Source: Candidatus Omnitrophota bacterium (lineage in GTDB: Bacteria; Omnitrophota; Gorgyraeia; Gygaellales; Gygaellaceae). Taken from it: 64,000 nucleotides of DNA. Both the position numbers and the translations under genes were made by a program. The notes beneath the pieces were generated by a model. The model did no database searches. It saw only the letters and a program-made list of their open reading frames with translations, and was not told the origin of the DNA. This document shows, one piece after another, positions 21,292 through 38,400 of this stretch. Every line of letters starts with the position of its first letter. Position 1 is the first letter of the stretch. Location: NCBI GenBank assembly GCA_018400015.1, contig JAGYNB010000001.1:70815-134814 (forward strand), given 5' to 3'.

Positions 21292-21311
21292 TTGTGAAAG
21301 GAGAAATTATA

Positions 21312-22127: not shown

Positions 22128-22152
22128 ATATTATCATTTGGCTCTACCTCCG

Positions 22153-22181
22153 GACACGGCAGGAGATAATCTTGCCGTGTC
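22153..22181 (+). terminator. pstS-pstC intergenic hairpin (8-bp GC-rich stem GACACGGC/GCCGTGTC), a likely partial terminator or attenuator
   Basis: It is a perfect inverted repeat followed by TTAATTAAT, positioned like the pstS-distal hairpin in other pst operons. Confidence 0.4.
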
Positions 22182-22201
22182 TTAATTAATAGCATAATAA
22201 A

Positions 22202-23083
22202 ATGAGAATTAAAGAGACAATTTACAAATGGATTTTTACAATTTTTGCGTTTGCATCTTTGTTGTTTCTTGTTGGAATAGTCGTAGTGCTTTTTAAAGAA
22301 GGCCTTCCAATTTTTAAACATGTGAAGCTTGTTGCTTTTTTGTTCGGTAAATCTTGGTATCCGACATATGAACCGGCTGAATACGGAATTTTACCTCTTA
22401 TAATGGGTTCTGTTTGGGTAACGGTTGGGGCAGTGTTGGTATCTGTGCCGTTGGGTGTGGGGAGCGCGCTTTATTTGGATGAATTGGCAAGCTATAAACA
22501 GAAAGCAATTTTAAAACCTATTATTGAGATATTAGCCAGCATACCATCGATAGTATTTGGTTTTTTTGGTATGGTAATAGTAGCGCCTTTAATCCAGAGG
22601 ATTTTTAAGTTGCCGGTAGGACTTTGTGCTTTGACTGCCAGTATTATTTTAGGGGTTATGGCAATACCGACTATTTGTAGCCTTGCTGAAGATGCCTTAA
22701 GTTATGTTCCTAGGTCTTTTCGCGAAGCATCTTTTGCACTTGGTGCAAATAGGTGGCAAACGCTTACAAAGGTTGTTGTTCCGGCAGCAGGCTCTGGTGT
22801 ATCCACATCCATAATATTGGGGGTAAGCAGAATTGTTGGTGAAACTATGACTGTTCTTATGGTATCAGGTGGTGCGGCAATGATTCCCGTTTCTTTTTTC
22901 CAGCCGGTAAGACCGATGACGGCTACTATTGCTGCAGAGATGGGAGAAGCGGCTATGGGAAGTGCGCATTACCACGCTTTGTTTGCGATAGGGCTTATAT
23001 TATTTTTGGTTACTTTAGTATTTAATATTATAGCTGAATTGATCAGCCGGCGGTTCAGGATAAAACTAGGTCTTAATAGATGA
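22202..23083 (+). CDS. pstC: Phosphate ABC transporter permease
   Basis: It has six TM helices and the permease EAA-like loop, at PstC position in the operon. Confidence 0.85.
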   Translation: MRIKETIYKWIFTIFAFASLLFLVGIVVVLFKEGLPIFKHVKLVAFLFGKSWYPTYEPAEYGILPLIMGSVWVTVGAVLVSVPLGVGSALYLDELASYKQKAILKPIIEILASIPSIVFGFFGMVIVAPLIQRIFKLPVGLCALTASIILGVMAIPTICSLAEDALSYVPRSFREASFALGANRWQTLTKVVVPAAGSGVSTSIILGVSRIVGETMTVLMVSGGAAMIPVSFFQPVRPMTATIAAEMGEAAMGSAHYHALFAIGLILFLVTLVFNIIAELISRRFRIKLGLNR

Positions 23084-23931
23084 AAAAAGACAATATACAG
23101 AATTTAGGTTTTTTAGTGTTATTTTTATGCATTGTTATAACCCTATTTTTTCTTGGGACAATAATATTTTTTGTAGTAGTAAGGGGTGCAAAAGTTATAA
23201 GTTTATCTTTTTTGTTTGAAGCTCCACGCAGGGCCATGACAGAAGGTGGCGTTGCACCAGCAATAATAGGCACTTTTTATCTTACGCTTGGCGCGATTAT
23301 ATTCGCTTTGCCTTTAGGCGTGGCTTGTGCAATTTATCTTTGTGAATATAGTCCGAAAAGTTTTGTGGTCAATATAATACGCATGAGCATAAACAACTTA
23401 GCAGGTGTTCCTTCTGTGGTGTTTGGGTTGTTTGGATTGGCTGTTTTTGTAAAGTTTTTTAATTTTGGGGTATCTATACTTTCAGGGAGTTTAACTCTTG
23501 GGATATTGGTTCTTCCATCGATCATATCTGCTTCTCAGGAAGCCCTATTGGCAGTTCCCCGCTCTATAAGGGAAGCATCGTTATCGCTAGGCGCTTCTTC
23601 ATGGCAGACGATAAAAAAGATAGTTATTCCCACGGCTTTACCGGGGATACTTACCGGTGTGATTTTAAGTATCGGTAGAATTGCCGGAGAGACAGCACCG
23701 ATAATGTTCACGGCAGCAACTTTTTATATAAAGAAATATCCAAGCTCGATATTCTCAGAAGTAATGGTTTTACCTTATCATATCTATGCGCTCATGACAG
23801 AAGGAACGCATCCTGATAAACAAACAGCTATTGCTTATGGGTGTGCTTTAATATTATTAATACTGGTTTTGTTTGTTTCTGCACTAGCTATTGTAATTAG
23901 ACAAAGACAGAGGAGTTATCATCATGCATAA
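23080..23931 (+). CDS. pstA: Phosphate ABC transporter permease
   Basis: It is a second permease with [10 protein letters not shown] and a conserved loop. Confidence 0.85.
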
Positions 23932-24685
23932 TGGTACAAGGATAAAAATAAGTAATGTCTCTTTTTATTACGGTAATTTAAAGGTTCTTTCAAATATCAG
24001 CATGGATATTTATAAGAATCAGGTTACGGCCATTATCGGGCCGTCAGGCTGCGGGAAATCGACTTTTATAAGGCTTTTAAACAGGATGAACGATCTTATA
24101 ACTAAAAGTAAGTTAGAAGGAAGTATTTATCTTGATAATAAAGATATATACAAAGCTAAAGAAGACGTTGTTGCAATAAGAAGGCTTGTAGGTATGGTTT
24201 TTCAAAAACCCAATCCTTTCCCTAAAAGTATATATGAGAATGTTGCTTATGGGCTAGAGGTTAATAATATAAAAGACAAGGCATTTATTGAACATAGGGT
24301 TATTGAATCATTACGAAAGGCAGCGCTTTGGAATGAAGTAAAGGATAGGTTGCATGATAGTGCGTTAAAACTTTCCGGCGGCCAGCAGCAGAGACTTTGT
24401 ATAGCCAGATGTTTGGCGGTTGACCCGGAAGTGATCTTGTTTGATGAGCCTTGCGCAAGTTTAGACCCCGTATCTACAAAAAAGATCGAAGAGTTGATTT
24501 TAGAATTGAAAAGCGATTATACGATTGTTATCGTAACCCATAATATGCAGCAGGCGGCAAGGGTATCAGATTTCACAGCTTTTTTATATCTCGGAGAACT
24601 TGTAGAATTTGGGCACACAGAAAAGATATTTACCGTCCCTAAAAACAAAAAGACTGAAGAGTATTTAACGGGAAAGTTTGGTTAA
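23924..24685 (+). CDS. pstB: Phosphate ABC transporter ATP-binding protein
   Basis: It has Walker A (GPSGCGKST), the signature LSGGQQQR and Walker B (ILFDEP). Confidence 0.9.
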
Positions 24686-24703
24686 TTCAATAAGGAGGAT
24701 GAT

Positions 24704-25357
24704 ATGTTAGAAGAGAAAATAACAGAATTAAAAAAAGAAATAGTCAGTTACGCCAGTTTAGTTGAGGGGATGATCGCTAAAGGTATAGACGGGTTTGTTA
24801 ATAAAAAAAGCGAACAGATTAAAACAGTAATAGAAAAAGAAGAAGTTAAAGCCAACAATTTTGAAATATCTATGGATGAATTGTGTACTAGTCTCATCGC
24901 TCAGTTCCAGCCCAGGGCTAGAGATCTGCGTTTTATTCTAATGATACTTAAAATTAATAATGATTTAGAAAGAATGGCCGATCATGCAGTAAATATTTCC
25001 CAAAGTGCGGCTTTTTTAATTGAAAAACCAATGGTAAAGCGTTTGATTGATATCCCCAAGATGAGTGAGGTGGTGATAGCTATGTTAAAAGAAAGTATTA
25101 CCGCTTTAATAAAAGAAGATGTTGCTTTGGCTAAAGATGTATGTGCAAAAGATAGTTTGGTTGACGATTTGCGTGATCAGATTATTAGAGAACTGATAAC
25201 CTTTATGGTTTCTGATTCATCCACCATCCAGAGAAGTCTGCATATATTGCGCGTAGCTACCAATTTAGAGCGTATTGCAGATCTCTCTACAAATATCTGC
25301 GAAGATATAATTTTTATGGTTGAAGGTAAGATAATTAAACATCATCATCAAGATTAG
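24704..25357 (+). CDS. phoU: Phosphate signalling complex protein PhoU
   Basis: It has the PhoU two-repeat helical architecture (NNDLERMADHAVNI ... ATNLERIADLSTNI). Confidence 0.85.
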   Translation: MLEEKITELKKEIVSYASLVEGMIAKGIDGFVNKKSEQIKTVIEKEEVKANNFEISMDELCTSLIAQFQPRARDLRFILMILKINNDLERMADHAVNISQSAAFLIEKPMVKRLIDIPKMSEVVIAMLKESITALIKEDVALAKDVCAKDSLVDDLRDQIIRELITFMVSDSSTIQRSLHILRVATNLERIADLSTNICEDIIFMVEGKIIKHHHQD

Positions 25358-25422
25358 CAATATGTAGTTATTCCCTTTAACTTTTGAAACCGATATCTAG
25401 ATCCCAATATATTAATTATTCA

Positions 25423-25451
25423 TTGAAGTACTCTTTATAAACAGATATAAT
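25423..25451 (+). promoter_or_regulatory. Sigma70-like promoter TTGAAG-17-TATAAT upstream of the moxR operon
   Basis: I read the hexamers and 17-bp spacing directly. An AAGGAGG RBS lies 5 nt before the ATG at 25495. Confidence 0.35.
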
Positions 25452-25494: not shown

Positions 25495-26421
25495 ATGGAT
25501 AATTCTAAGATAAAGGACTTATTAGATAATATTGAGAAAGTCATCGTCGGTAAGACCGAGAAAATAAAGTTTTTGATCACAGGGCTTCTTACCAATAGCC
25601 ATGTTTTGATTGAGGATGTTCCCGGTCTTGGCAAGACAATGCTTGCCTTATCATTATCTAAGTCAGTATCGGGAAAATTCAAAAGAATTCAGTTTACCCC
25701 GGATTTATTGCCTTCGGATGTTACCGGAGGTTATGTTTATAATCCTAAGTCTGGCGAGTTTGACTTCAGAGAAGGCCCGATATTCGCCAATATCGTTTTA
25801 TCCGATGAAATCAATAGAACAACACCTAGAACTCAGTCAGCGTTATTAGAATGTATGCAGGAATATAAAGCTACAATCGACGGAAAAACATTTATACTTC
25901 CTCAGCCCTTTATGGTTATTGCTACGCAAAACCCCATTGAGTACCAAGGTACTTATCCACTTCCTGAAGCGCAGGTGGATAGATTTTTAATGAAAATTAA
26001 TATGGGTTATCCTACCGAAGAAGAAGAGGTAAAGGTTATATCAGGTCAAAAGCAGGTTCATCCAGTGGAGACTCTTAGTGCGGTAATGAGTTTAGAAGAA
26101 GTGGTTAAACTTCAGGAGGAAGTTAAAAGAGTACAGGTTATGCCAAATATTTTAAACTATATCGTAAAGATAATTTCACTTACCAGAAAAAGAGATGATA
26201 TCAAAGTAGGCGCCAGCCCCAGGGCATCGATATCTTTGATGAAAGCAAGCTGTGCTTGGGCTTTTATTGAGGGAAGAGATTATGTTATTCCTGATGATGT
26301 CACTAAACTTGCCACTTGGATACTTCAGCATAGGATAAGTCTTGAACCAAAGTCACTTATCGTAGGCAAAACCGCAGAAATGGTGATAGCGGAAATCATT
26401 AAAGAGATACCTATTCCTTAA
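25495..26421 (+). CDS. moxR: MoxR-family AAA+ ATPase
   Basis: It has Walker A (DVPGLGKT), Walker B (LSDEINR), and MoxR-typical length and order. Confidence 0.85.
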   Translation: MDNSKIKDLLDNIEKVIVGKTEKIKFLITGLLTNSHVLIEDVPGLGKTMLALSLSKSVSGKFKRIQFTPDLLPSDVTGGYVYNPKSGEFDFREGPIFANIVLSDEINRTTPRTQSALLECMQEYKATIDGKTFILPQPFMVIATQNPIEYQGTYPLPEAQVDRFLMKINMGYPTEEEEVKVISGQKQVHPVETLSAVMSLEEVVKLQEEVKRVQVMPNILNYIVKIISLTRKRDDIKVGASPRASISLMKASCAWAFIEGRDYVIPDDVTKLATWILQHRISLEPKSLIVGKTAEMVIAEIIKEIPIP

Positions 26422-26425
26422 ATAA

Positions 26426-27670
26426 ATGCTTAAGATATTCATTAAAAAATGGATATTTATCTTTTTTCTCCTTTTATTTAGCCTTATCGGTTCTTTAAAA
26501 AGCCATATTGCTTTTTTTAATATATTTTTTTGGATTCTTTTATCGATTATTTTCCTGGAACTATTCTGGGTAAGTTTAGCTTATTTTACCGCCCGTTTTA
26601 GTTTTGAAAGAAACCTTCCCTATAAAAGTGTAGAAGACGATACGATTACAATCAAAACAAATGTTATAAACAAGACGATATTGCCGTTTTTTAATCTTGT
26701 TTTGGAGGATTATGTTTATTGTGAGGAGCCCACAAGACAAAAACATACCACAATGTTTGAATTTATTGGACCCAAGAAAATACTTACATTGACCTACAGA
26801 TGTTTTTGTTATAAAAGAGGCAGATATAATATTGGTCCTTTGAAAGTTTTTTTCTTTGGTCCCTTTGGTCTATTGTTTTTTAAAAGAAAGTACGAAGTAT
26901 TTTCAGAAATATACATATATCCCAAGACATTCACTATTCATAAATTAGGGCCGTTAACCAAAGGTATTGCGCCTTGGTTTGGCATTGAAACCAGCCGTGT
27001 AAGCGGAGATGACGATGAGTTTTTTGGTGTCCGTGAGTATAAAAGCGGTGATCCGATAAAAAAGATTCATTGGGCGACAACTGCAAAGAAAAACCAGCTT
27101 ATCGTGAAGGAATTTCAAAGACAAAGTTTCTATAGAGCGAGTATTATTTTTAATCTTGAAAGACAGACTAATTATGGCACAGGACGCGAGAGAGTTGCCG
27201 AGTATATGATAAAACTTGCCGCTTCGATTGCCAAATACCTTACATTGAGAGGGGTTTCTTTTGAAGTTATCTCCCATACTCAGGAGACGGTCCATGTACC
27301 TTTTAATAAGGGTGAAAATCATCTGGAAGAGGTAATGAAGTTTTTAACTATCGCACAAGCTGAGAGTGCCGTAAGTCTGCGCGAGATTTTTGAAGAGTTT
27401 TCCAAACGCCTACCTAACGATTCCAGTATGATTGCGATTATGCAGGATAGTGACTGGGAATGTCTTCCCGCGATGATGTCTTTAAAGCTCAGGAACATAT
27501 CGCTTTTACCGATAATATTGGTTTCGTCAAGCTTTAAAGAAAAAAAAGATATTGAAGAAAGCGAACGTGAAACAAAACTAAATGTATCCAAGACAATCGA
27601 TTTTGTGCCCATATTTGTCAGTCGCGGGGATAATTTCGAAGAAATATTTTTATCAAGCAACATTAAATGA
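26426..27670 (+). CDS. DUF58 (vWA-like) protein with N-terminal TM helices
   Basis: REYKSGDPIKKIHWATTAKKNQLIVKEF matches the DUF58 core. It is the standard second gene after moxR. Confidence 0.7.
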   Translation: MLKIFIKKWIFIFFLLLFSLIGSLKSHIAFFNIFFWILLSIIFLELFWVSLAYFTARFSFERNLPYKSVEDDTITIKTNVINKTILPFFNLVLEDYVYCEEPTRQKHTTMFEFIGPKKILTLTYRCFCYKRGRYNIGPLKVFFFGPFGLLFFKRKYEVFSEIYIYPKTFTIHKLGPLTKGIAPWFGIETSRVSGDDDEFFGVREYKSGDPIKKIHWATTAKKNQLIVKEFQRQSFYRASIIFNLERQTNYGTGRERVAEYMIKLAASIAKYLTLRGVSFEVISHTQETVHVPFNKGENHLEEVMKFLTIAQAESAVSLREIFEEFSKRLPNDSSMIAIMQDSDWECLPAMMSLKLRNISLLPIILVSSSFKEKKDIEESERETKLNVSKTIDFVPIFVSRGDNFEEIFLSSNIK

Positions 27671-30600
27671 CAAAAAATAAGAATATTATTAAAATAGAAT
27701 TGATACTGACCTGCCTGCTGCTTTTTATAAATACTTTTCTTTTGTGGCATGTGTTGTTTCCCTATGGGTTTTATTTCCTATGCGTAATTGTGGTTGGTTT
27801 TATTTTAAGCGGGTATATCCATAGACGTCTTGGGAGAATTTTTGATTTATTGGTGAGTTTGGCTATTCTTGCTGTTTTTATTTTGCTTGTCATCTCAACA
27901 GTAAAGTCCTCTTTTATATACAAAGAAGTCGTTGAAATTTTTGTAAAGAAAATATTTTTGGCTTTAGTTATTTTCTCTTTTGCCGCATCATCGGCAATAT
28001 ATTTGTCATACATTCAAGTTTTAAGTGCTGCCGTATTAATATCCCACGCGCTTTTTATCACCAATTATACATTAATGGTTTTTTCTTTTGTAATTGCCTA
28101 TCTTTTATTATGGGTAATGATAATGAGGGTAAAGCTTTATGGATATTTTTCCGATATTGATGAAATAAAGGGTAAAAAAAAGTATCCTTTATTCATTTCG
28201 TTTGTATTTTTTATTATCGCTTTTTTGTTGGCATGGGCATTGTTCGTTAAGTTTCCCATAGGTAAGTTTGATAAATTCGCAATTTTATTTCATCTTGAAG
28301 AATCTGCCAACCCAGAATTTCTTACGACAGAAAAAGAAAAAGATTTCTCGCAACTTGAGGAAGAATTGGTTGATAAGGCAGCAAAGTTGATTTCCGATTC
28401 AAATTACGGCACGATTGGGGATAAAGAAGCAAGCCTCACTTTATTTAATAAGTTGATTAATCGTTCGTCAACCTCATTAGAGGTTTTGCAGGCAGAAGCA
28501 GGGTTGTTTGATTTACTTAACAGGACGGGGCCAGGCATAGAAGAAAAAAAAGATGACCTAAACAGCATTTTAAATCAATACTTAAAGGCAAGGTTAGATT
28601 TCAATTTAAGTAGTAATTCTAAAATCCTAATTAATAGTTTCAATATGAACCCGTTTAATATATTTGATAAGTTAGCCAATATGAGTAAAGTTAATAAACT
28701 TAATTCCAGCGGTTCGTTGGATGAACTTAATGAAGAAAGCGAGAAGCTTACTGACAAGATAGACAAAAAGCATCTTAATCTTCAAGAGGTTGTAAAAATT
28801 GATGAGGCAGTAGATGATCTTAGGCAAATCAAACTAGAGGAGCTTTACAGAAAGAAAAAAGAAGAAATAAAAAATGATTTAGTGAAGTTAGAGAGAGAAA
28901 AATCTAAGCTAGAAACTTCCATATATGCAGGTAATTTAGAAGAAGGAGAATTCTTTTCTCAAGGGAAAAGCGATTTTAACATTATAAAACAAAGTGTTGT
29001 TAATGATTTAAACAAATTAAAAGAATCTTTGAGGCAATTATCTGTGTATCCAGAAACAGAAAACGAAATAGATAAAATTATCTCAAAAGCGAAGATTTCC
29101 AAGGATATTAAGGATTTATCGGATATTGGCAATGCCCTGAAGCAGTTAGAAAAAAGACCTAATGAGTCTACAAAAGGTAACATCAAAGGGATGAGAAAAC
29201 TCATTGATTTGCAAGTTGGAATTGGAAATTTAAAAGAATTACTTTTAGAAATAGAAAAAGCTACCAACTTGGATAATTTTAAAGAGATAGATAAGGATAT
29301 CAATCAATTAGCAGAAAAGCATTGCGAAACTTTGGATAAACACTTGAGCGACTTGTCCGAACTGTCCGATATTAAGTTATCCATTGTCAACGAGCATATA
29401 AAACAGATGATTGGCCAGGATTTAAAGGATTCCAATGCTCCGGAATATTTTAAAAACGAAATAAAACATTCTTTGGAAATTATAATTTCTACGAACAATG
29501 AAAAAGAGTTTAAGGAGCAGTCTACGAAGACTCATGAGAAGCTCAAAAATAATAAAACCGGTTCTGAAAAAGATATAAAGCAATTAATTATGAGCAAGTC
29601 ATTTTTATTATCTAAAGAAAAAAGAGAGGAAATTAAATCCGAGTTAGAGAAGGATCTTGATATTCAGTTGTTGGATGAAAAACTCAAAGAGTTGAAACAG
29701 CAGATTGACCGGCTTGAGGAAGACAGTCTGTTAGACTCATTACAAAAGAATACTGATAAGCTTAAAAGCGAATTGGAACAATTATCCAGTAAAGGGCAAT
29801 TATTAAAAACAAATCAGGATAATCAGGATAAATCTTTGGATGAACTTTTCGATATTTTATCAGTAAAAATCATCATAGAAAGTGAAACTTATCAAGAAGG
29901 AGAAAATAAACAAAAAAGGAAGGAAGATTCCTTTGAACAATTATTGAATGCCGAAGAAATGTCAGAGGAGGTAAAAGAACTTTTAAAAGATCTTAAATCA
30001 AAAATCGATAAAGCAAAGGATTTTTCTGAAATAAAGAGGCTTATGGAAGAAATAGACATGCTTGAAAATATCATGAAGGATAAAGTCGATGAAGATGATT
30101 TGAAACAAATAAAGCAGTCTTTAAAGCAAAGGATGCAGATACGTAAAGAATTTATTCGCCAGAATATAAAGTCTCGTTTAGCGCAGCAGCTTGATTTGAT
30201 GAAAAGATCTAATTCTATTGATAATAATACGATTGATAAATTAAAAAGAGAATTGTATAAAAGCAAAACTGACGAGCAACTTAGGGATACGCTTGATAAG
30301 ATAAGTTCTTTTTTAGAGCAGGAGTTAGTGTCTACCGAAGACAATTTATCATCAGCCGAAAGTTTTGATTGGCAGTCAAAGAATGAGGCAGCTATGGTCA
30401 AGAATGAAGATATAGTATCCGAACCCGGTCAAGAGGCTATGGCCAAAGAATTAATAGCCGTTCCTTTACGTATTGTTATGTCAGTAGATACGAGTGTACA
30501 ACCAAAAGCTTTTTTTGTTTCCAATAAGTTGTTTGCAATTGACGTAACTGATAAATGTATTTGGACATCAACTAACCCTAATGTGGCTTGGATAGATCAA

Positions 30601-30747
30601 AAAGGTGTTATTCACGCAATTAATAAAGGAGCAACTGAAATTACAGCAGTATTTAGAGACACTTCTAGCAAAGTAATAAATGTTTTGGTTTCTGATGGGC
30701 TTTTATCTTCTGTTGAATACGCCATAGAAAGAGAAGTTGCCAAATAA
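27667..30747 (+). CDS. Large membrane protein: 6-7 TM N-terminal domain (DUF3488-like), about 700 aa of coiled coil, and a C-terminal Big_2 Ig-like domain
   Basis: It has about 200 aa of hydrophobic helices. Then comes a K/E/D/L/N/S-rich heptad-like region (ELVDKAAKL...KLKSELEQLSSKGQLLK...) without exact tandem DNA repeats. The Big_2-like end reads CIWTSTNPNVAWIDQKGVIHAINKGATEITAV. Confidence 0.5.
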   Translation: MTKNKNIIKIELILTCLLLFINTFLLWHVLFPYGFYFLCVIVVGFILSGYIHRRLGRIFDLLVSLAILAVFILLVISTVKSSFIYKEVVEIFVKKIFLALVIFSFAASSAIYLSYIQVLSAAVLISHALFITNYTLMVFSFVIAYLLLWVMIMRVKLYGYFSDIDEIKGKKKYPLFISFVFFIIAFLLAWALFVKFPIGKFDKFAILFHLEESANPEFLTTEKEKDFSQLEEELVDKAAKLISDSNYGTIGDKEASLTLFNKLINRSSTSLEVLQAEAGLFDLLNRTGPGIEEKKDDLNSILNQYLKARLDFNLSSNSKILINSFNMNPFNIFDKLANMSKVNKLNSSGSLDELNEESEKLTDKIDKKHLNLQEVVKIDEAVDDLRQIKLEELYRKKKEEIKNDLVKLEREKSKLETSIYAGNLEEGEFFSQGKSDFNIIKQSVVNDLNKLKESLRQLSVYPETENEIDKIISKAKISKDIKDLSDIGNALKQLEKRPNESTKGNIKGMRKLIDLQVGIGNLKELLLEIEKATNLDNFKEIDKDINQLAEKHCETLDKHLSDLSELSDIKLSIVNEHIKQMIGQDLKDSNAPEYFKNEIKHSLEIIISTNNEKEFKEQSTKTHEKLKNNKTGSEKDIKQLIMSKSFLLSKEKREEIKSELEKDLDIQLLDEKLKELKQQIDRLEEDSLLDSLQKNTDKLKSELEQLSSKGQLLKTNQDNQDKSLDELFDILSVKIIIESETYQEGENKQKRKEDSFEQLLNAEEMSEEVKELLKDLKSKIDKAKDFSEIKRLMEEIDMLENIMKDKVDEDDLKQIKQSLKQRMQIRKEFIRQNIKSRLAQQLDLMKRSNSIDNNTIDKLKRELYKSKTDEQLRDTLDKISSFLEQELVSTEDNLSSAESFDWQSKNEAAMVKNEDIVSEPGQEAMAKELIAVPLRIVMSVDTSVQPKAFFVSNKLFAIDVTDKCIWTSTNPNVAWIDQKGVIHAINKGATEITAVFRDTSSKVINVLVSDGLLSSVEYAIEREVAK

Positions 30748-30749
30748 AA

Positions 30750-32912
30750 ATGAAAATATTCAAATATTGTTTTAGTTTAGTTATCTTTTCTTTAATTTTT
30801 ACTTTCGCGTTATCAGCGCCAGAGTACAGCATAGAAAATACCTCATTAGGTAAGGTAGTAGTTGGCCTGACACAAGAAGAGGTATTACAGGAATATGGGT
30901 CTCCAGATTTGGTAAGAGGAAATGTTTGGTATTATGATACAGAGCAGCCGTTTTATGCCTATTTAAAAAATAAAATTTATCTTTATCCGGATAAGATTAA
31001 AGTGAGCCTTGGTTCACCTGTTGAACTAAAAGTTTTAATCGATAAGTTCGACAAGGGGATATTGGATATAACTCGGGATAGTGAGTTTATAGTAAGCGAT
31101 GAAGAAAGTTTTATCGTTGACGAAAAGAATGTTATTTTTCCTAAGCGAGAAGGTAGTTTCCAGATATTTGCAAAATACAGAAACCGTTTAACCAATATTT
31201 GTAATCTTGAAGTAACTAACGTTGAGAGTGAAAAGGAAAAAATATCTCTAATGCAGATTGTAACATTCCCCTCTTTCGTAGAGACTGTTGAAGAGACAAG
31301 AATTGAATTTTCCGCATTCGGAGTTTTTAAAGATACTGATAAGAAAATTGTGTATATAGAAAATATTTCCAACCGTGCAAATTTTTTATTGCGTAGCGAA
31401 GGAAAAGTTACAAAGCAAAAAGACCGTTTTGTTAAATTTTTCAAAAAAGGCAGATATGAATTGTTTTGTACTTATTCTGATGTTTTAAGTGAGCCTAATG
31501 AGGTTGTTGTTTACGGATACGAAGAATTTCCAGGGCAAAAACGCTCTTTGCGCGAGATAAAAGCCTTTCCCGGGTATGTATCTGTTTTCCCAGATTATCG
31601 GATTGAATTTAAGGCATTCGCGAATTTTTTAGATAATAATTTTCATGATGTCACTTATCCGTCAAACTGGTTTGTTAAAGATACTGATATAATGGATGTT
31701 CTTGAAAAAGGCAAATTTCTTGCTCGTCAACCCGGGGTTACTGAGGTTATAGCTAGGTATAATCAAGACGAAAGTCTTCCTTTAAAGATAGTTGTTAATG
31801 ATAAAAAGAAAACAGAACAAGCGCCAACTAACAAAATGGAAAAGAGGATTAGTTTCAAAGATTTGTTTGAAGATACGAAAGAAGAAATCGAAGATTTTAA
31901 GGAAGATATTTCTTCTCAATACAGGAAGATAGTTTCGATAAAGTTATCCGAAGAATATGTTGAGTTGGGATTAGGACAGGAGTTCGATCTTAAGGCAATA
32001 GCAGTTTACGATGATGGCAAAGAAGAGGATGTTACTTTTTTAAGTCGGTGGTTGAGTTCTCAGGAAAAAACCGCCGTAATCTCAAAAGGGCGATTGAAGG
32101 CAATGAATACAGGCAGTGCATTGGTTAGCTGTGAATATAAAAATATAAGAAGTCTTCCGGCGACTGTGAATGTTGGCGAAGAAAAACTTCTTTCGATTGC
32201 TGTAAAGCCGGAAAATATCAGCCTAGATATGACAGAGAGAGTTCAACTTTTCGCGGAAGGTTTTTATAGTGATCAATCAAAGCGCGATATTACTTCGCTT
32301 GTAGATTGGCATTGTGAAAAGGAGAAGATGCTAGTAGTTTCTGCAGATGGGGAGCTTATACCAAAATCTCCTGGTAGCACTAATTTGGTGGCTAAATATC
32401 TTGATGTAGAAAGTTTGCCAATTTCGCTATCGGTTAGATATGGCCTTAAGTGGTTTTTTTTGCAAGCACTTAAATTAATGTTACTGTTAATGGCACTTGG
32501 TATATTCTTGTTTATTGTTATGTATTTTGTTGTTGAAGCTAAAAAAGCAAAACTATTGATATTGAAGGATAAAGATTCTAGGCAGTTTATGTTAAAGCTA
32601 TATGAAAATTTAAGTCGTCTGCTTACATTGGCAGGTTCTATGCCTTTAAAGGGCGATGCTTACCTTGCATATGCAGAATATGTACAGAATAAATACCAGA
32701 TAAAAGACGATTGTTTTTTAGATATAGTAAAGCTTTTCGAAAAGGCGAAATTCAGTAGTTATGATATTTCTGAAGTTGAAAAAGAACATATTCTAAATAA
32801 CTACAATTTGTTTCTGAACAGTTTGTTTTCCAGCCTAAAAAAAACTTACCAGATACATTTAAGAATAAAATCCGTTTTCTATAGGGTTGTTTTGTTGATT
32901 AAAACAGTTTAA
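30750..32912 (+). CDS. Signal-anchored protein with several Big_2 Ig-like domains, a C-terminal TM helix and a DUF4129-like cytoplasmic tail
   Basis: Ig-like segments recur (e.g. SALVSCEYKNIRSLPATVNV, GSTNLVAKYLDVESLPISLSV). A TM helix (LMLLLMALGIFLFIVMYFVV) is followed by a tail resembling the DUF4129 domain found at the C-terminus of TgpA-like proteins. Confidence 0.45.
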   Translation: MKIFKYCFSLVIFSLIFTFALSAPEYSIENTSLGKVVVGLTQEEVLQEYGSPDLVRGNVWYYDTEQPFYAYLKNKIYLYPDKIKVSLGSPVELKVLIDKFDKGILDITRDSEFIVSDEESFIVDEKNVIFPKREGSFQIFAKYRNRLTNICNLEVTNVESEKEKISLMQIVTFPSFVETVEETRIEFSAFGVFKDTDKKIVYIENISNRANFLLRSEGKVTKQKDRFVKFFKKGRYELFCTYSDVLSEPNEVVVYGYEEFPGQKRSLREIKAFPGYVSVFPDYRIEFKAFANFLDNNFHDVTYPSNWFVKDTDIMDVLEKGKFLARQPGVTEVIARYNQDESLPLKIVVNDKKKTEQAPTNKMEKRISFKDLFEDTKEEIEDFKEDISSQYRKIVSIKLSEEYVELGLGQEFDLKAIAVYDDGKEEDVTFLSRWLSSQEKTAVISKGRLKAMNTGSALVSCEYKNIRSLPATVNVGEEKLLSIAVKPENISLDMTERVQLFAEGFYSDQSKRDITSLVDWHCEKEKMLVVSADGELIPKSPGSTNLVAKYLDVESLPISLSVRYGLKWFFLQALKLMLLLMALGIFLFIVMYFVVEAKKAKLLILKDKDSRQFMLKLYENLSRLLTLAGSMPLKGDAYLAYAEYVQNKYQIKDDCFLDIVKLFEKAKFSSYDISEVEKEHILNNYNLFLNSLFSSLKKTYQIHLRIKSVFYRVVLLIKTV

Positions 32913-33331
32913 CTGTCATGCAGTTTATCAATCAGGGCGTTTATTCTTGAAATAAGCGGCCAGAACTTATCGGTTTGTCTTATTTTAATATGATCTTTTT
33001 TTTCGCCTTTTATCACACCATCTAGCTCTCTTAGGATTCTGTCAAATGATCCGATCAGTTTATGCGTCTGTTTATAAACCACCATTAAAATAATGGCAAT
33101 CGAGCCAGGGGCAAGAAATAAAAGGATAATGCTGACTTGTTCTGCGATTATAAGCGGGTCAATATTGAAAGGAAGGATAAAATCCTCTCCGATTACCGAG
33201 AATACAAGAAAATAAAGACATAAGCTTACAATTAAAGTAGGTAATAATGCTACAAGAAATATCAGGTTCAGTATATCTTTCTGAAACTGGTTTGCATAAA
33301 AGGTCTTTCTTCTTTCTTTTGCGCCAGCCAT
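32909..33331 (-). CDS. HAMP-only mini membrane protein (2 TM plus HAMP-like helix pair, no output domain)
   Basis: It is 140 aa. It has a basic N-terminus, two hydrophobic helices, and FDRILRELDG...LISRINALIDKL (HAMP AS1/AS2-like). Its stop overlaps the stop of the convergent gene at 32909-32912. It is a paralog of 52638..53027. Confidence 0.4.
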   Translation of the reverse strand: MAGAKERRKTFYANQFQKDILNLIFLVALLPTLIVSLCLYFLVFSVIGEDFILPFNIDPLIIAEQVSIILLFLAPGSIAIILMVVYKQTHKLIGSFDRILRELDGVIKGEKKDHIKIRQTDKFWPLISRINALIDKLHDS

Positions 33332-33488: not shown

Positions 33489-33956
33489 ATGAAACATAAT
33501 GACCTGGATATTTTTGCGGATAAGATGTGTGAGGTTATTCCTGATATCGCCCGTGAGGTTGCTAAAAGGGAAAGCAAAACCATTCTTAACAGTAAAGTTA
33601 GCATTTCTCAGCTTTTCTTGCTTGAGCTCTTAACCAGAGAAGGCGATATGCCAATGTCTAAGATAGCTAGCAATATGGGGGTATCTCTTCCGGCCGTAAC
33701 AAATATTACGGATAAGTTGGTAAAAGATAATTTTGTAAAAAGGCTATCTCACCCTAAAGATAGAAGGATTATTCTTATAAGCGCCACAGCCAAAGGCAAA
33801 GATGCGGTTGAAAAAGTAAATAGTATGAGGAGAAAATTTATAATTGAAGGTTTTGGTAAGTTAACCGCTAAAGAAAGAAATGTATATTTAGCAATTATTA
33901 TTAAATTACGCAATATATTAAAAGGTAAGACCGATAACAAAAAAAATGAAAAGTAG
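33489..33956 (+). CDS. MarR-family transcriptional regulator
   Basis: It has a winged-HTH MarR-like core (ISQLFLLELLTREGDMPMSKIASNMGVSLPAVTNITDKLVKDNFVKR). Confidence 0.75.
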   Translation: MKHNDLDIFADKMCEVIPDIAREVAKRESKTILNSKVSISQLFLLELLTREGDMPMSKIASNMGVSLPAVTNITDKLVKDNFVKRLSHPKDRRIILISATAKGKDAVEKVNSMRRKFIIEGFGKLTAKERNVYLAIIIKLRNILKGKTDNKKNEK

Positions 33957-35430
33957 AAAAAGCAGAATAGGTTATATTATTTTAGGATTAATTTTGATCG
34001 CTAATATTAGTTTTAGCGAAGAGGTTAATTTTGATAAAGCCACATTGGAATTGTCTTTAATCGATGTTTCCAGTATTGCCATAGAGAATAATCTTGATAT
34101 CCAGATTGCAAAATACGATGCCTACATAAAAAGGAATGATGATTTAAGCAGTCGCTCTATATATGATACGATTTTTTCAGTTTCGGCAGCATATGATAAA
34201 GATGAAAAAGTTTCTTCCAGTTCTTTGGCGGCGGATTCAACAACAACGCGAGATTACACAGCCGGCATTTCCAAAAAGACTCCCACAGGTACTACAGTAG
34301 GAGTGGATTTTGAAAATCAGCGCGTAGATACTGACTCTGGCCTTGTGAACATGAATCCTAGCAATGATGTAAAGGCAAAACTTTCCTTAAAACAGGAATT
34401 AGGCAAGAATTTCTTTGGTCTTAAGGATAGGTCTGATATAAAAATTACTAAGTTAGAGATAATTAATTCCGATTACGCTTCTTTGGAGAAAATTGAAGAC
34501 GCTTTATTGAATGCCCAGAAGGCGTATTGGGAATTAGCTTACCTTTATGAGGAGTTAAATATAAGAAAAGAAATGCTTAATAAAGCCAAGCATTTGATGA
34601 GAATATATGAGGATAAGTATAAACTTGGGTTAGTAGAAGACCCTGATTTGTTTGCTGCTCAAGCCAATGTTTTATTAAGAAAAAATGAGCTTAGAATAAC
34701 AGAAGAACAGCTTGAGCTGGCCAATAGCGATCTGTTGTTGATGCTTAATGAGGAAAGTACGGATTTGGATATTTTGCCTAAAGAAAAAATAGAATTTAAA
34801 GTTTTTGATGTAGATTTTAACGAGTCTTTAAAACAGGCGATTTCTCATCGCAGGGACTATTCGCAGGCAAAAAACAATATAAAAGCAAAAAATATTAAGC
34901 TGGTAACCAAAAAAAACAATCTTTGGCCGGAGATAGATTTAAGCGCCAGCCTTACGAAAAACGGTATTGATTCTTCATATAGCGAAGCCTTATCGGCAAT
35001 AAAAGATCAAGACAATAAGGAAGTATATGTCGGTTTTACTATTAAGATACCTTTAGAGAATTCGGATGCGAGATCACAGCTTAATAAGGCGCGTTTAGAA
35101 AAGGCAAAGTATTTAGTTATGCTTAAACAGGTTGAGCGTAAGATTTTGCTTGATATAAACGATAAGATAACTATTTTGACTTCGTTTTTAAATCAGGTAG
35201 AAACGAATATTACTATTGTTGATCTGCAGCAGAAAAAACTCGAAGCTGAAGAGGCTAGGTTTAGCTTAGGCAGATCATCAAGTGATATTTTAATTCGTTA
35301 TCAGGAGGATCTATTAAATGCTAAGCTTTCTTCGGCGGTTTCAATATACCAATGTGAATTAGCATATATAGATTTATTAAAAAGCCAAGGAACGCTTTTA
35401 GATAGCTATACAAAAGGCAATGTATTATGA
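33946..35430 (+). CDS. TolC-family outer membrane efflux protein
   Basis: It has a signal peptide, two-repeat TolC/OEP architecture and coiled-coil-rich segments, at 494 aa. Confidence 0.75.
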   Translation: MKSRKSRIGYIILGLILIANISFSEEVNFDKATLELSLIDVSSIAIENNLDIQIAKYDAYIKRNDDLSSRSIYDTIFSVSAAYDKDEKVSSSSLAADSTTTRDYTAGISKKTPTGTTVGVDFENQRVDTDSGLVNMNPSNDVKAKLSLKQELGKNFFGLKDRSDIKITKLEIINSDYASLEKIEDALLNAQKAYWELAYLYEELNIRKEMLNKAKHLMRIYEDKYKLGLVEDPDLFAAQANVLLRKNELRITEEQLELANSDLLLMLNEESTDLDILPKEKIEFKVFDVDFNESLKQAISHRRDYSQAKNNIKAKNIKLVTKKNNLWPEIDLSASLTKNGIDSSYSEALSAIKDQDNKEVYVGFTIKIPLENSDARSQLNKARLEKAKYLVMLKQVERKILLDINDKITILTSFLNQVETNITIVDLQQKKLEAEEARFSLGRSSSDILIRYQEDLLNAKLSSAVSIYQCELAYIDLLKSQGTLLDSYTKGNVL

Positions 35431-38400
35431 AGATTATAGAATTTAGCGTAAAACATTCTTTGTTTGTAAACCTTCTATCGGCTCTTATTATCATAGCTGG
35501 CGTTATTTCCATGTTTCAGTTAAGGCGCGAGGCTTTTCCGGAAGTTTCTTTTGATATCGTTACCGTGGAGACTATGTATAGCGGCGCTTCTGCTGAGGAA
35601 GTAGAGAAATTAGTTACGGCACCTTTAGAGAAAGAGCTTAAGAATGTAGATGATGTGGATGAGTTGAGTTCTTCTTCACGCGAGGGGTATTCTCTTATCG
35701 CGTTGGAACTTAACCCCGATTTAAACGAAAATGATGTAATGAAGGTTGTCGATGATATTCAAAAAGCAGTTGATCGAGTTACTGATTTGCCAGAGGGGGT
35801 TGAAGATAAACCTTTGGTAACTGAGATAACCTCTAATGATATGCCAGCAATAAAACTTGCCTTAAGCGGTAATCTTCCTGAAGCGCAGTTACGGGATTTA
35901 GCAGATAAACTCGAAGATAGAATAGAAAATATAGAAGGAGTTTCCAGTATAAGAAAAACCGGTTGGCGCGATGAAGAATATTGGGTGGAGCCAGATATAA
36001 ATAAACTTAAAACATTTCATGTTTCCATAGAAGAGATTATGCAGGCGCTTTCTAAGAAGAACGTTACAATCCCCGCAGGGAAACTTCGTCTTGACGGACA
36101 GGAATTTATAGTTAAGACAACAGGAGAGTTTGTCGCAAAAGAAGATATCGAGAATGTTATTATAAGGGCTAATGATTTAGGTAATTGGTTAAGAGTCAAG
36201 GATTTAGCCAATGTACGCCATACCTTTGAAGAAGAAAGTATTATTCATAAAACTATGGGTACCCGTTCTATTACGCTAATTGTTTTAAAAAGAGAAAAGG
36301 GCGATGCAATAAAGATGGTTGCTCAGATAAAAGATGAAATAAAAGATTTTACCAAGAGCGTTCCCAAAGAGCTAAAGATTTCTACGCCGTATGATTTATC
36401 TTACTATATCGAAAGGCGGCTTAATGTTTTAAGAAACAATGGCGCAATAGCGATTGTTCTAGTGGTCGCGGTTTTGTTTTTATTTCTGCATCCAATGGCC
36501 GCACTTTTTACATCCTTGGGAATTCCTATTGCCATGCTGGCAACATTTTGGTACATGAATTCTGTGGGGATGAGCATAAATATGATCAGCATGTTCGGTT
36601 TAATTATTGTTTTGGGCATGGTAGTTGATGACGGTATTATTATAAGCGAGAATGTCTATCGTTATTTTGAAAATGGAATGCCGGCAAAAGAAGCTGCGAT
36701 AAAAGGTGCAAATGAAGTTATGGCGCCCGTTTTTGCTACAATCATGACTACGTTTGCCGCATTCAGTCCGCTTTTATTTATGTCTGGATTAATTGGTAAA
36801 TTCGTAAAACAAATCCCTTTGGTTGTAATTATAGCCTTAAGCGCTTCTGTAATCGAAGCGTTTGTGATTTTACCTAGTCACTTGGCTGATTTTGTAAAGG
36901 CGAATAAAGATAATAAAGAAAACAGGGTTTCTAAAATAGGCAAGACTATATTTAATAAGGTTTCAAGATTATATAATAAGGTTTTGAATAAAGCACTTAA
37001 CCACCGTTATAAATTCGCCGCTACGATACTTATAATTTTTATTACCAGCATGGTTTATGCAAAGTTATTTATGCCATTTTTACTTTTTGGTTCAAAAGGA
37101 GTAGAACAATTTCATATAAGAGCAGAAGCAAAGCCGGGCACATCGCTGTATCGCATGGAAGAACTTCTGCGTCCGGTTGAAGAGTTTGTCGGCAATATGC
37201 CCAGGGAATATCTGGATTCATATGAGACATTGATCGGTTCGATATCAGAAGAAAGAGGTTTTGATCCCAATGCTAAGCAGGCTAGTAATGTTGCTCAGAT
37301 TGAAGTCTATCTTAGCCCTGCCCAGGGGAGAAGAGTATCTGCAAAGCAGATTATGGATGATATGCGTGGTGATTTAGTTAAGATAAAAGACAAGCTTCCG
37401 GAATTAGAGAAGCTTTATTTTAAGGAGTTTAAAGACGGGCCACCTACAGGAAAAGCAGTAGATTTAAGAGTTCGAGGAGAAGATTTCCAGATCCTAAAAA
37501 CAATTGCCGAAGAAGTTAAAGAGTACTTGTCGAGTTTAAAAGGCATAAAAGATATCGATGATAGTTATGATACGGGTAAAAGAGAACTGCGCGTTATTAT
37601 TGATGAGGAAAAATCTACTATGGCATTTTTGACTGTAGGAGAAGTTGCGACAAGTCTTAGGAATGCTTTTGAAGGGGGCATGGCTACGGAAATTACACGT
37701 TCAAAGGCTGAAGAAAAAATCAAGGTTTTGGTCAGGCTTCCACAGAAGCAGCGTGATACGATGGATGTTTTTAATAATCTAGTTATCGTAAATAAATATG
37801 GCAATCTCGTTCCTTTAAAGTCTATCGCTACGATAGAAGATAGCTGGGGTTTAACTTCCATAGAGCATTACGAAGGGGAACGCATCATTGGCGTTAGTGC
37901 AAGTGTTAATAATAAACAGATGACTTCAAAAAAAGCAAACGGGCTGCTTAAGTATAAATTTAAAGATATCTCAGATCGTTACCCAGGGTACAGTATCAAA
38001 TACGTAGGGGAAGAACAAGATAATGTTGAGTCTATGCGCAGTCTTGTACAGGCGTTCGCTGTAGCGTTTTTACTTATATTTTTGATCCTTGCGACTATTT
38101 TCAATTCCCTTATCCAGCCTTTTGTAGTCATGCTTACGATTCCTTTTGGATTGGTGGGAGTTATTTTTGCCTTGAGCGTTCATAATGAACCAGTAAGTTT
38201 CTTAGCAATTATGGGTATAATTGGTTTAGCAGGTGTTGTGGTAAATGATTCCATTGTTTTTGTTGATTTTATTAATAAACTAAGGAAACAAGGTATTGAT
38301 AGGCGCGATTCCATAGTCCAGGCAGGCTTACTAAGGCTCAGGCCTGTCATGCTTACTACGATAACAACGGTTTTTGGTTTAAGCACCGTAGCCTATGGCA

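Follow-up and report, generated by a model that had tools for sequence, protein, structure and literature searches.

A MoxR-DUF58 operon of Candidatus Omnitrophota with a third component that is probably a TgpA-derived, transglutaminase-less membrane scaffold made of two polypeptides

Operons that open with a MoxR ATPase and a DUF58 protein are already known. In PA2875-PA2874-PA2873/tgpA of Pseudomonas aeruginosa and in the MoxR-DUF58-transglutaminase loci of Listeria and Paenibacillus, MoxR (AAA_3) is followed by DUF58 and then by a large membrane protein, with tight packing throughout. This third component, TgpA, has a polytopic TgpA_N-type anchor, a large extracytoplasmic centre that holds the Transglut_core with its Cys-His-Asp triad, one TM helix and a DUF4129-type tail. 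Bat (Bacteroides aerotolerance)-type operons, MoxR-DUF58-BatA/B/C/D, share the first pair and continue with membrane proteins; a vWA domain defines BatA/B, and TPR defines BatC. The PFNA cluster of Bifidobacterium, pkb2-fn3-MoxR-DUF58-tgm, combines a TgpA-like membrane protein that has an intact transglutaminase with a Ser/Thr kinase and a separate secreted Ig-like (FN3) protein (PMC8430577, PMC12067865). An annotated precedent for a transglutaminase-less third gene is the 'DUF4129 domain-containing protein' of Thermomicrobium roseum (WP_012643168.1, 469 aa), which follows MoxR-DUF58, matches DUF4129 (E 1.5e-11) and has no transglutaminase core.

We analysed a stretch of 64,000 nt, here called the window, from a Candidatus Omnitrophota bacterium (GCA_018400015.1, contig JAGYNB010000001.1, positions 70,815-134,814, forward strand). 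Four co-directional ORFs on the + strand occupy window positions 25495-32912. What is new in this operon is its third component, which is split, lacks a transglutaminase and carries helical repeats and Ig domains. The features are as follows.

25384-25413 and 25423-25451, + strand: two sigma-70-like promoter matches (10/12 matches each)
25495..26421, + strand: gene 1, MoxR-type AAA+ ATPase, 308 aa (Pfam AAA_3 and AAA_lid_2)
26426..27670, + strand: gene 2, DUF58 protein, 414 aa (Pfam DUF58)
27667-30747, + strand: gene 3, 1026 aa (ORF)
27667..28257, + strand: gene 3 residues 1-197, polytopic membrane module with about seven hydrophobic segments (hydrophobicity, AlphaFold helices, TgpA_N matches)
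28312..30336, + strand: gene 3 residues 216-890, predicted periplasmic helical region of 25 helices (AlphaFold DSSP, profile self-matches)
30445..30696, + strand: gene 3 residues 927-1010, C-terminal Big_2-type Ig domain (Pfam, Foldseek)
30750-32912, + strand: gene 4, 720 aa (ORF)
30750..30989, + strand: gene 4 residues 1-80, signal-peptide-like N-terminus and small alpha/beta domain (hydrophobicity, secondary structure)
30993..32438, + strand: gene 4 residues 82-563, five Big_2-like Ig domains (AlphaFold, Big_2, LigA match)
32445..32909, + strand: gene 4 residues 566-720, single TM helix and predicted cytoplasmic tail of five helices (AlphaFold, alignments)

An earlier note on this DNA had identified the first two genes as a MoxR-DUF58 pair, and both Pfam assignments are solid. 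Gene 1 matches AAA_3 (E 2.5e-63, 212 bits) and AAA_lid_2 (E 7e-22), and Walker A (GLGKT) and Walker B (LSDE) can be read in its translation. Gene 2 matches DUF58 (E 1e-14, 54.6 bits against a cutoff of 23.4) and begins with two hydrophobic helices at residues 4-28 and 33-51. The same note had stop and start codons overlapping across all four genes; we found an overlap (ATGA) only between genes 2 and 3, with gaps of 4 nt between genes 1 and 2 and of 2 nt between genes 3 and 4. The promoter matches lie upstream of gene 1, in the 137 nt that separate it from phoU. Such sites are no commoner across the region than in shuffled sequence, and as a candidate operon promoter they are suggestive only.

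Does the pair formed by genes 3 and 4 contain a transglutaminase? The earlier note had recognised none, and Transglut_core indeed matched neither ORF, nor any reading frame of the window, nor any of about 90 relatives. vWA and TPR domains were likewise absent from the Pfam matches of both genes.

The middle of gene 3 (residues ~216 to 890) is helical and rich in K, L, E, S and D. It had been described as a coiled coil of about 700 aa, a description that did not survive, since the region is no canonical, uninterrupted coiled coil. AlphaFold models it as 25 distinct helices, 5-52 residues long (pLDDT 80-93 for a large part of it), and heptad periodicity barely exceeds that of shuffled sequence (10.6% of windows above the 95th percentile). 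Instead, the region contains five cryptic tandem repeats of ~80 residues, each a long-short-short arrangement of three helices (293-373, 554-628, 635-711, 714-797 and 808-887). Profile-profile self-matches between them reach 95.6% probability (E 1.2e-8; z 11-23 in a column-shuffle control). A repeat HMM found 5 copies in gene 3 and 1 to 12 in relatives, in which copy number tracks protein length (r 0.87). Foldseek found no structural homologue of the helical region in the PDB. We rejected an origin of this region in low-complexity DNA or misassembly: its DNA holds no tandem repeats, and it is conserved over its whole length in relatives of ~25% identity.

The Ig domains were recognised correctly by the earlier note, with one at the end of gene 3 and several, which proved to be five, in gene 4. 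The gene 3 domain scores 22.7 bits against a Big_2 cutoff of 22.8, yet 20 of 31 relatives match this model (best E 6.1e-12), and the domain superimposes on Leptospira LigA (8gyr, Foldseek) with an rmsd of 1.0 A over 86 columns. In gene 4, a local Ig HMM found five domains, which lie at residues 82-156, 165-255, 267-349, 394-476 and 480-563; residues 350-392 form a disordered linker, and AlphaFold pLDDT is mostly 80-92. Of eight gene 4 family members, all eight match Big_2 (best E 2.3e-11), and the domains match the tandem Big_2 of LigA (8gyr) with target TM-scores of 0.74-0.78 at 24% identity. This likeness to LigA/LigB is one of domain fold only: the Lig proteins lack a TgpA-type anchor. Lig proteins are outer-surface lipoproteins and adhesins. 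The PFNA cluster differs in that its Ig-fold protein is of FN3 type and is encoded upstream, not as the C-terminal half of a TgpA scaffold.

At the two ends of the pair, the earlier note had proposed a DUF3488-like N-terminus of 6-7 TM segments and a TM helix with a DUF4129-like tail. The membrane segments and the tail are there, and relatives match both Pfam models, but the window's own proteins do not reach them. Gene 3 aligns with TgpA_N (DUF3488) over residues 23-197 (model 7-182) at 14.4 bits and E 0.019, below the cutoff of 30; the Pfam search reported no DUF4129 in gene 4, and a consensus sequence of the family matched neither model. Among relatives, TgpA_N is matched by 7 of 51 unsplit and 5 of 31 split-type proteins (best E 9.1e-8 in the unsplit set); the register is constant (residues ~17-197 to model ~2-182), and it is the only TM-domain family matched repeatedly. 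DUF4129 is matched by 8 of the 51 unsplit relatives (best E 4.6e-8), exactly at the C-terminus that follows the TM helix. One of these, P0089, matches both TgpA_N and DUF4129 (25.0 bits against a cutoff of 24.8 for the latter). The gene 4 tail, of ~120 aa with a conserved motif F-E-[EK]-A-[KR]-[YF]-S, aligned by hhalign with the TM-plus-DUF4129 segment of genuine TgpA (residues 608-707 of 721, E 6.5e-5) and with DUF4129 of Thermomicrobium (E 3.7e-4). In all, it aligned in register with DUF4129 of four different genuine proteins, and phmmer matches recurred in that register. The N-module and the tail are thus supported as remote relatives of TgpA_N and DUF4129, respectively, through relatives and profile comparison only.

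Profile searches found at least 301 clusters of relatives at E<=1e-3, and every named one is Candidatus Omnitrophota; the split pair belongs to a large, unnamed, phylum-specific family. The earlier note had called for a survey of the split architecture after MoxR-DUF58. The four-gene arrangement is kept in at least seven divergent loci (~30% identity), with gene-3-type proteins of about 860-1000 aa and gene-4-type proteins of 700-750 aa. In addition, 62 retrieved members (P0012, at locus L010, and 61 others) are single chains that join the gene 3 N-module to the gene 4 TM helix and tail, and these directly follow MoxR-DUF58. Representatives (P0012/L010, 595 aa; P0089/L015, 732 aa; P0072/L016, 823 aa) resemble the window pair at 25-40% identity in the N-module, in the first segment and repeat of the helical region, and in the TM helix plus tail. 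Each of them is a single polypeptide, though, and has 0-2 Ig domains and one to a few repeats, against two polypeptides, six Ig domains and five repeats in the window. The T. roseum protein, in contrast, is single and short; Big_2 was not detected in it, nothing in it matched the helical-repeat family, and no alignment was obtained between its N-terminal part and the Omnitrophota N-module. Next to related loci, genes for envelope glycans recur (Glycos_transf_4, Wzy_C, GT1, PagL), and some database entries for relatives are automatically annotated as myosin-like or SbcC-like.

The earlier reading of genes 3 and 4 as a divided TgpA scaffold gains from these single chains, from the matches of relatives at both ends and from the tail's register with TgpA, and we consider it probable that the operon encodes a transglutaminase-less, TgpA-derived membrane scaffold in two polypeptides. 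Perhaps a frameshift, nonsense mutation or assembly error simply broke one gene and left gene 4 as a remnant? Single-chain relatives do exist, and a mere 2 nt separate the genes. However, the pair recurs at consistent lengths in independent loci, it holds more Ig domains than any unsplit form, and gene 4 and its homologues carry a signal-like segment (~1-23, ...ALSA|PE) and a conserved alpha/beta domain (27-80; invariant G34, K35, V36, L40, G50, P52, W60 and Y62) that the unsplit forms lack. An artefact or pseudogene is therefore largely refuted and extremely unlikely. It is also very unlikely that the pair has nothing to do with TgpA, being a helical membrane protein and an Ig-repeat adhesin, both generic, that stand beside MoxR-DUF58 by chance and whose weak TgpA_N and DUF4129 matches are hydrophobic or helical noise. 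The sub-threshold scores would agree with this, as would two null results: hhalign of the N-module against three genuine TgpA proteins and HMM-to-sequence searches against four real TgpA-like proteins found nothing. Noise does not readily explain matches of constant register confined to the expected ends, both of them in P0089, nor a place directly after MoxR-DUF58 that is kept across split and unsplit members.

A divided TgpA scaffold might still be an enzyme, with an unrecognised catalytic or ligand-binding domain, at gene 3 residues ~216-295 or in the small N-terminal domain of gene 4, in place of the transglutaminase. Gene 3 residues 216-400 and the small gene 4 domain are the best-conserved soluble parts and have invariant residues, neither candidate segment has a Pfam or PDB match, and the glycan genes beside related loci would suit such a role. 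Yet the gene 3 family shows no conserved Cys/His/Asp triad or other Cys/His/Asp/Ser-type constellation outside its Ig domain; its invariants consist chiefly of L, K, E, Y, A, N and G, and all-helical repeat arrays and Ig domains are typically structural or binding modules. Hence we regard an enzyme as unlikely. Less likely still is a cytoplasmic helical region, membrane-tethered in the manner of SMC or EzrA, with only gene 4 extracytoplasmic. K/E-rich helical proteins are often cytoplasmic, the myosin-like and SbcC-like annotations point the same way, and AlphaFold draws gene 3 residues 34-80 as one continuous helix, which, if real, would make the TM count even and put the helical region in the cytoplasm. 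That helix, however, would place the charged HRRLGR motif within the bilayer. Positive charges in gene 3 cluster at the N-terminus, in the HRRLGR loop and in a KGKKK loop, and a 7-TM, N-in model obeys the positive-inside rule (+8 inside against +2 outside). The C-terminal Big_2 domain of gene 3 is homologous by alignment to the Ig domains of gene 4, which are exported: gene 4 runs from signal peptide through Ig domains and TM helix to a K-rich segment. In unsplit relatives the Ig domains lie between the helices and the last TM, so that helices and Ig domains share one side, opposite the K-rich tail. Finally, the equivalent central domain of P. aeruginosa TgpA is periplasmic by experiment (PMC3507681). 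In the predicted topology, the helices are periplasmic, as are the Ig domains, six in total, and the gene 4 tail is cytoplasmic.

We propose that in this divided scaffold gene 3 would supply a TgpA_N-like polytopic anchor (about seven TM segments, N-terminus inside) and a periplasmic stalk built largely of the three-helix repeats and capped by its Ig domain. Gene 4, exported by its own signal peptide, would add to the periplasm its small alpha/beta domain and its five Big_2 domains, cross the membrane once and end in the cytoplasmic DUF4129-like helical tail, so that the two proteins jointly reproduce the topology of the single-chain Omnitrophota relatives. The halves may associate by packing of the gene 4 TM helix on the gene 3 TM bundle, by Ig-Ig contacts, or both. 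A cytoplasmic MoxR hexamer, acting through the membrane-anchored DUF58 adaptor, would work on the cytoplasmic face (the DUF4129-like tail and TM loops) and thereby drive assembly or remodelling of the complex. The earlier suggestion that the pair forms an envelope structure or an adhesin-like assembly and is not an enzyme fits this topology and is plausible. The periplasmic part would have a structural role in the cell envelope, as a spacer, tether or binding module of tunable length, and the pair would most likely function as a non-enzymatic, length-variable envelope scaffold under MoxR/DUF58 control.

Four open reading frames occupy positions 25495 to 32912, as the earlier note had described; they encode 308, 414, 1026, and 720 aa. 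They and their neighbors are arranged as follows.

20053-25357, same strand as the operon: Porin_5-type porin gene, then pstS-pstC-pstA-pstB-phoU, directly upstream of the operon
25495-26421, + strand: gene 1, MoxR
26426-27670, + strand: gene 2, DUF58; TAA of gene 1, 4 nt, then ATG, no overlap
27667-30747, + strand: gene 3; overlaps gene 2 in the sequence ATGA
30750-32912, + strand: gene 4; TAA of gene 3, 2 nt, then ATG, no overlap
32909-33331, - strand: convergent putative membrane ORF of 140 aa with two hydrophobic segments; its 3' end and that of gene 4 share 4 nt
33489-38573, downstream of the operon: MarR regulator, outer-membrane efflux protein (OEP), and AcrB-type RND pump, adjacent to one another

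Stop and start codons had been said to overlap across all four genes. This was wrong: they do so at a single junction, that of genes 2 and 3. The four genes are likely co-transcribed. The 137-nt gap 5' of gene 1 holds two promoter-like hexamer pairs, which are statistically not distinctive. Because the flanks consist of the porin and pst-phoU genes upstream and of the convergent ORF and efflux genes downstream, we consider the operon a self-contained unit. The convergent ORF has no Pfam match, and a membrane-fusion (HlyD-type) gene is absent between the OEP and AcrB genes. At related loci that carry counterparts of genes 3 and 4 as separate genes, the gap between the two is about 170 nt in two cases (L001, 2724-2895; L005, 4949-5120), versus 2 nt in the window, and in a third (L002) the two halves overlap by 4 nt. 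Tight coupling of the halves is therefore not universal.

Gene 1 has the features of a MoxR (MRP-type) AAA+ ATPase. Pfam detects the AAA_3 core at 212.2 bits (cutoff, 27; E 2.5e-63) and the AAA_lid_2 domain at 77.4 bits (E 7e-22), the Walker A (GLGKT) and Walker B (LSDE) motifs are readable in the translation, and a DUF58 gene begins immediately downstream, 4 nt past the stop codon. Gene 2 scores 54.6 bits against DUF58 (PF01882), above the gathering score of 23.4, and its N-terminus is a pair of hydrophobic helices.

What, then, fills the place of TgpA, the usual third gene of such operons? The third position is kept, but the scaffold is made of two ORFs, unlike the single polypeptide of TgpA. 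Pfam found no Transglut_core (PF01841) in genes 3 and 4 at E≤1 to 10, nor in any of 51 unsplit relatives, nor among the 25 families listed for 31 split-type proteins with the gene 3 N-terminus. Likewise, a local transglutaminase-core HMM matched none of 173 family sequences, no ORF of the window, and nothing in its six frames. Outside the Ig domain, the columns of the gene 3 family that are invariant or nearly so show no Cys/His/Asp constellation. By Pfam and the local HMM alike, the third and fourth genes thus lack a transglutaminase core, as had been noticed from the sequence. We also considered a Bat-type aerotolerance operon (vWA proteins BatA/BatB and TPR protein BatC) and rejected it, since genes 3 and 4 have no vWA or TPR match in Pfam or NCBIfam; NCBIfam returns nothing at all for them.

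We then asked whether genes 3 and 4 retain the two ends of TgpA. Plasmid records supplied genuine comparators: MoxR-DUF58-transglutaminase proteins of Listeria and Paenibacillus carrying Transglut_core and DUF4129, a Streptomycetaceae protein with TgpA_N and Transglut_core, and a Thermomicrobium MoxR-DUF58 partner named "DUF4129 domain-containing protein" that has no transglutaminase. With hhalign, a profile of the gene 4 tail (TM helix plus C-terminal helices, residues 566-720) matched the TM and DUF4129 end of a real TgpA alignment (positions 608-707 of 721; E 6.5e-5, 64% probability) and the Thermomicrobium DUF4129 domain (E 3.7e-4), and phmmer recovered the in-register tail match to DUF4129 for many family members. 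Pfam reports no DUF4129 (PF13559) in gene 4 itself. It reports the domain in 2 of 8 close gene 4 homologues (E≥0.32) and, searched per member, in 8 of 51 single-chain relatives (best E 4.6e-8); a second batch of 10 members gave weak DUF4129 matches only. The DUF4129-like end proposed for gene 4 accordingly stands on its profile and its relatives, but not on a match of the window protein. We regard the tail, with good confidence, as a probable DUF4129 relative.

The N-module, the polytopic membrane part at the start of gene 3, was harder to place. The window protein scores 14.4 bits against TgpA_N (DUF3488, PF11992; cutoff, 30; E 0.019), with residues 23-197 on model positions 7-182. TgpA_N matches occur in 7 of the 51 single-chain relatives (best E 9.1e-8), all in one register, and in 5 of the 31 split-type N-proteins in that same register. 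One single-chain protein, P0089, is matched at both ends, by TgpA_N (E 1.1e-4; residues 17-196 on model 2-181) and by DUF4129 (25.0 bits, above the 24.8 cutoff). However, hhalign and hmmsearch found no N-terminal match between the N-module and three genuine TgpA proteins or the Thermomicrobium protein. The majority-consensus sequence of the family matched neither TgpA_N nor DUF4129 in Pfam, and tblastn with a genuine TgpA_N region returned too few plasmid homologues for a better profile. The suggestion of a DUF3488-like N-terminus finds some support in the relatives, while gene 3 itself stays below threshold. With moderate confidence, the N-module may be called a TgpA_N relative. Judged from sequence, the homology of genes 3 and 4 to TgpA appears to be transitive and remote.

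The nearest relatives are in Candidatus Gygaella obscura (64% identity for gene 3, 57% for gene 4), and gene 4 homologues at about 30% identity occur in metagenomes. The order MoxR, DUF58, 810- to 1000-aa protein, 710- to 980-aa protein recurs at at least seven distinct loci, and gene 3 homologues can be aligned over their whole length, helical middle included. Word-index searches with gene 3 or an N-terminal family alignment, capped at 8000 candidates, gave almost nothing; the family was recovered through gene 4 homologues, genome context, and an exhaustive profile search. A scan of genome contigs turned up at least 3 loci. In one Omnitrophota metagenome-assembled genome (locus L010), MoxR and DUF58 are followed by one protein of 595 aa (P0012). 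Gene 3 aligns with its first ~400 residues and the end of gene 4 with its last ~130 (one TM helix and tail), a proline-rich linker lying between. From P0012, gene 3 residues 1-383, and the gene 4 tail we built a profile and ran it against 1.84 billion representative proteins. It recovered at least 301 clusters at E≤1e-3, of which 182 reach E≤1e-10. The 173 sequences available were classified locally and fall into three groups.

Classes of family members by module content
Single chain with both modules: n = 62; 473-1222 aa; no Ig domain in 35, one or two in 27
N-module only: n = 59; full-length ones 860-1518 aa; exactly one Ig domain, C-terminal
Tail only: n = 50; full-length ones ~700-750 aa; five Ig domains

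MoxR-DUF58 precedes the single-chain member at both loci checked (n = 2), with overlapping junctions. Given these unsplit relatives and the consistent split classes, we conclude that the split noted earlier is a real, conserved architecture. Nor is the gene 4 type a broken gene, because it starts with a signal sequence of its own and a small domain that is conserved. Split and unsplit forms are interleaved in a crude neighbor-joining tree, which has long branches and carries no support analysis; this hints, the tree not being robust, that fission or fusion happened more than once. Every member with a source name comes from Candidatus Omnitrophota, and each bears the annotation "hypothetical protein." Fragments in the clusters of two family members (P0138 and P0086) bear spurious labels, including "myosin heavy subunit" and "DNA repair exonuclease SbcCD ATPase subunit," presumably triggered by the K/E-rich helical repeats.

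Envelope-glycan and LPS genes lie beside several related loci (L010, 8357-9394; L015, 5101-6087 and 10179-11090; L016, 1-3698; L002, 4086-5237 and 12191-12751). They encode Glycos_transf_4 (WecA/MraY-like), Wzy_C, GT1/GT4 glycosyltransferase, and PagL proteins, and they are present at all three unsplit loci examined. The window operon differs, being flanked by pst-phoU and the efflux cluster with no such glycan genes adjoining. These recurring neighbors are weakly consistent with an envelope role.

The middle of gene 3 had been described as a coiled coil of about 700 residues. Residues 206-930 are indeed rich in K (13.8%), L (13.5%), and E (12.6%), as well as S and D. The heptad signal is marginal, however, with a mean score of 0.31 versus 0.26 in shuffles and 10.6% of windows above the 95th percentile. 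AlphaFold, run on a 31-sequence alignment (pLDDT 74.7, pTM 0.57), draws 25 helices at residues 216-890, ~84% helical with loops between them. The longest has 52 residues, and a motif recurs in which a long helix of 30-50 residues precedes two short helices of 13-22. A single coiled coil is therefore not borne out.

Single-sequence Smith-Waterman self-comparison found no internal repeats; they emerged only with family profiles. We cut the family alignment into slices at the helical units and ran profile-profile comparisons among them. Slices 296-371, 554-633, 634-713, 714-808, and 809-892 gave in-register alignments of 66-76 columns, and the strongest pairing reached 95.6% probability (E 1.2e-8). 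Scores were far above column-shuffled controls (z 11-23), which also destroy amphipathic periodicity, so that part of the excess may be a general property of helices. A repeat HMM found five copies in the window protein, 1 in P0012, and 12 in the 1518-aa P0086, the latter two having been kept out of its building, and the number of copies rises with protein length among 107 family members (r = 0.87). From the in-register slices, the distance from the controls, and the tracking of length, we conclude that the region is a cryptic, variable-number tandem array of three-helix units of ~80 residues. It has no PDB counterpart, and the repeat has no Pfam model. An artefact of low-complexity DNA or of assembly, which the earlier note had allowed for, was rejected: there are no tandem DNA repeats, and conservation is full length. 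Residues ~423-520 (window 28930-29230) form a lineage-specific insertion of ~80-100 residues that is partly present in Candidatus Gygaella and absent in all other aligned homologues; it coincides with lower pLDDT.

Big_2 domains (PF02368) had been assigned to the end of gene 3 and, in several copies, to gene 4. The sequence scores fall just below the cutoff of 22.8 (22.7 bits for gene 3, 19.6 for gene 4), but the fold agrees, with one domain in gene 3 and five in gene 4. Pfam detects Big_2 in all 8 gene 4 relatives (best E 2.3e-11), in 20 of the 31 split-type gene 3 relatives (best E 6.1e-12), and in 15 of the 51 single-chain relatives. AlphaFold (pLDDT 78.5) predicts for gene 4 an N-terminal helix, a small alpha/beta domain (27-80), beta-sandwich domains at 82-156, 165-255, 267-349, 394-476, and 480-563 with a disordered linker at 350-392, a TM helix, and a five-helix tail. 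In Foldseek, the gene 4 array matched the tandem Big_2 domains of Leptospira LigA (8gyr) at target TM-scores of 0.74-0.78, along with other Ig arrays, and the C-terminal domain of gene 3 superimposed on LigA at 1.0 Å rmsd. A PDB sequence-profile search returned LigA/LigB, Big_2 proteins only. The small domain at residues 27-80 (window 30828-30989) is found only in the gene 4 type, has invariant G34, K35, V36, L40, G50, P52, W60, and Y62, and lacks a Pfam match. Its motif, G-L-x(3)-V-x(3)-G-x-P...W-Y, may resemble BamE/SmpA_OmlA-like domains.

Where would these parts lie? Gene 3 has seven hydrophobic segments, with positive charges at the N-terminus, in an HRRLGR loop, and in a KGKKK loop, although AlphaFold draws residues 34-80 as one helix. 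We infer an N-in, seven-TM protein in which everything past residue ~197 would be outside the cytoplasm. A periplasmic location of the corresponding region is known from experiment only for Pseudomonas aeruginosa TgpA (PA2873; PMC3507681). For gene 4, the order of signal peptide, Ig domains, TM helix, and K-rich tail suggests that the tail is inside. The single chains run helices, Ig, TM, tail, and therefore the helices and Ig domains should be on the same side. MoxR systems comprise a cytoplasmic AAA+ ring that acts through a vWA-like adaptor (PMC12067865). By such a route, MoxR, working through DUF58 in the membrane, may act on the parts of the scaffold that face the cytoplasm, namely the DUF4129 tail and TM loops, and this action might assemble or remodel the periplasmic structure. 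Because there is no catalytic signature, while the stalk is a helical repeat of variable length accompanied by six Ig domains, the periplasmic part more likely serves the envelope as a structural tether, a spacer, or a binding module than as an enzyme.

MoxR-DUF58 operons with a TgpA-like protein are already known as a type. A transglutaminase-less DUF4129 partner is annotated in Thermomicrobium, and the Bifidobacterium PFNA cluster has an Ig-fold partner in a MoxR-DUF58 operon (PMC8430577). What is new here is a large family, apparently specific to Omnitrophota, that has a stalk of helical repeats in place of the enzyme, some members with Big_2 domains and some without. Also new are the recurrent two-gene split with its six-Ig periplasmic complement and a helical repeat without Pfam or PDB model. 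We found no published description of this family in the literature. At least 300 protein clusters now "hypothetical," some mislabelled as myosin-like or SbcC-like, could be named, and the ~80-aa repeat and the small N-terminal domain of gene 4 are two unmodelled modules definable as families.

Omnitrophota are ultra-small, possibly host-dependent bacteria. MoxR-DUF58-TgpA operons are widespread, and tgpA has been reported essential in P. aeruginosa; we know of no established function for these operons. That the family keeps MoxR, DUF58, and both TgpA-like ends without the enzyme suggests a conserved partnership at the membrane and cytoplasmic face rather than catalysis. An enzyme-free system would be a simpler setting for what MoxR and DUF58 do to their partner; split versus unsplit forms predict interacting parts, and the variable number of repeats predicts a role as a spacer, for comparison with envelope dimensions. 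A wider reading, to which we give only a slim chance, is that MoxR-DUF58 is a general cytoplasmic driver of a TgpA-type scaffold (TgpA_N bundle plus TM-DUF4129) with an interchangeable periplasmic head. In Omnitrophota the head would have become a stalk in which 1 to 12 three-helix repeats carry Ig domains at the tip, either an ATP-controlled, length-tunable ruler or tether across the periplasm or an adhesin that reaches the surface. If this is true, transglutamination would not be the conserved core function of the widespread, partly essential MoxR-DUF58-TgpA triad.
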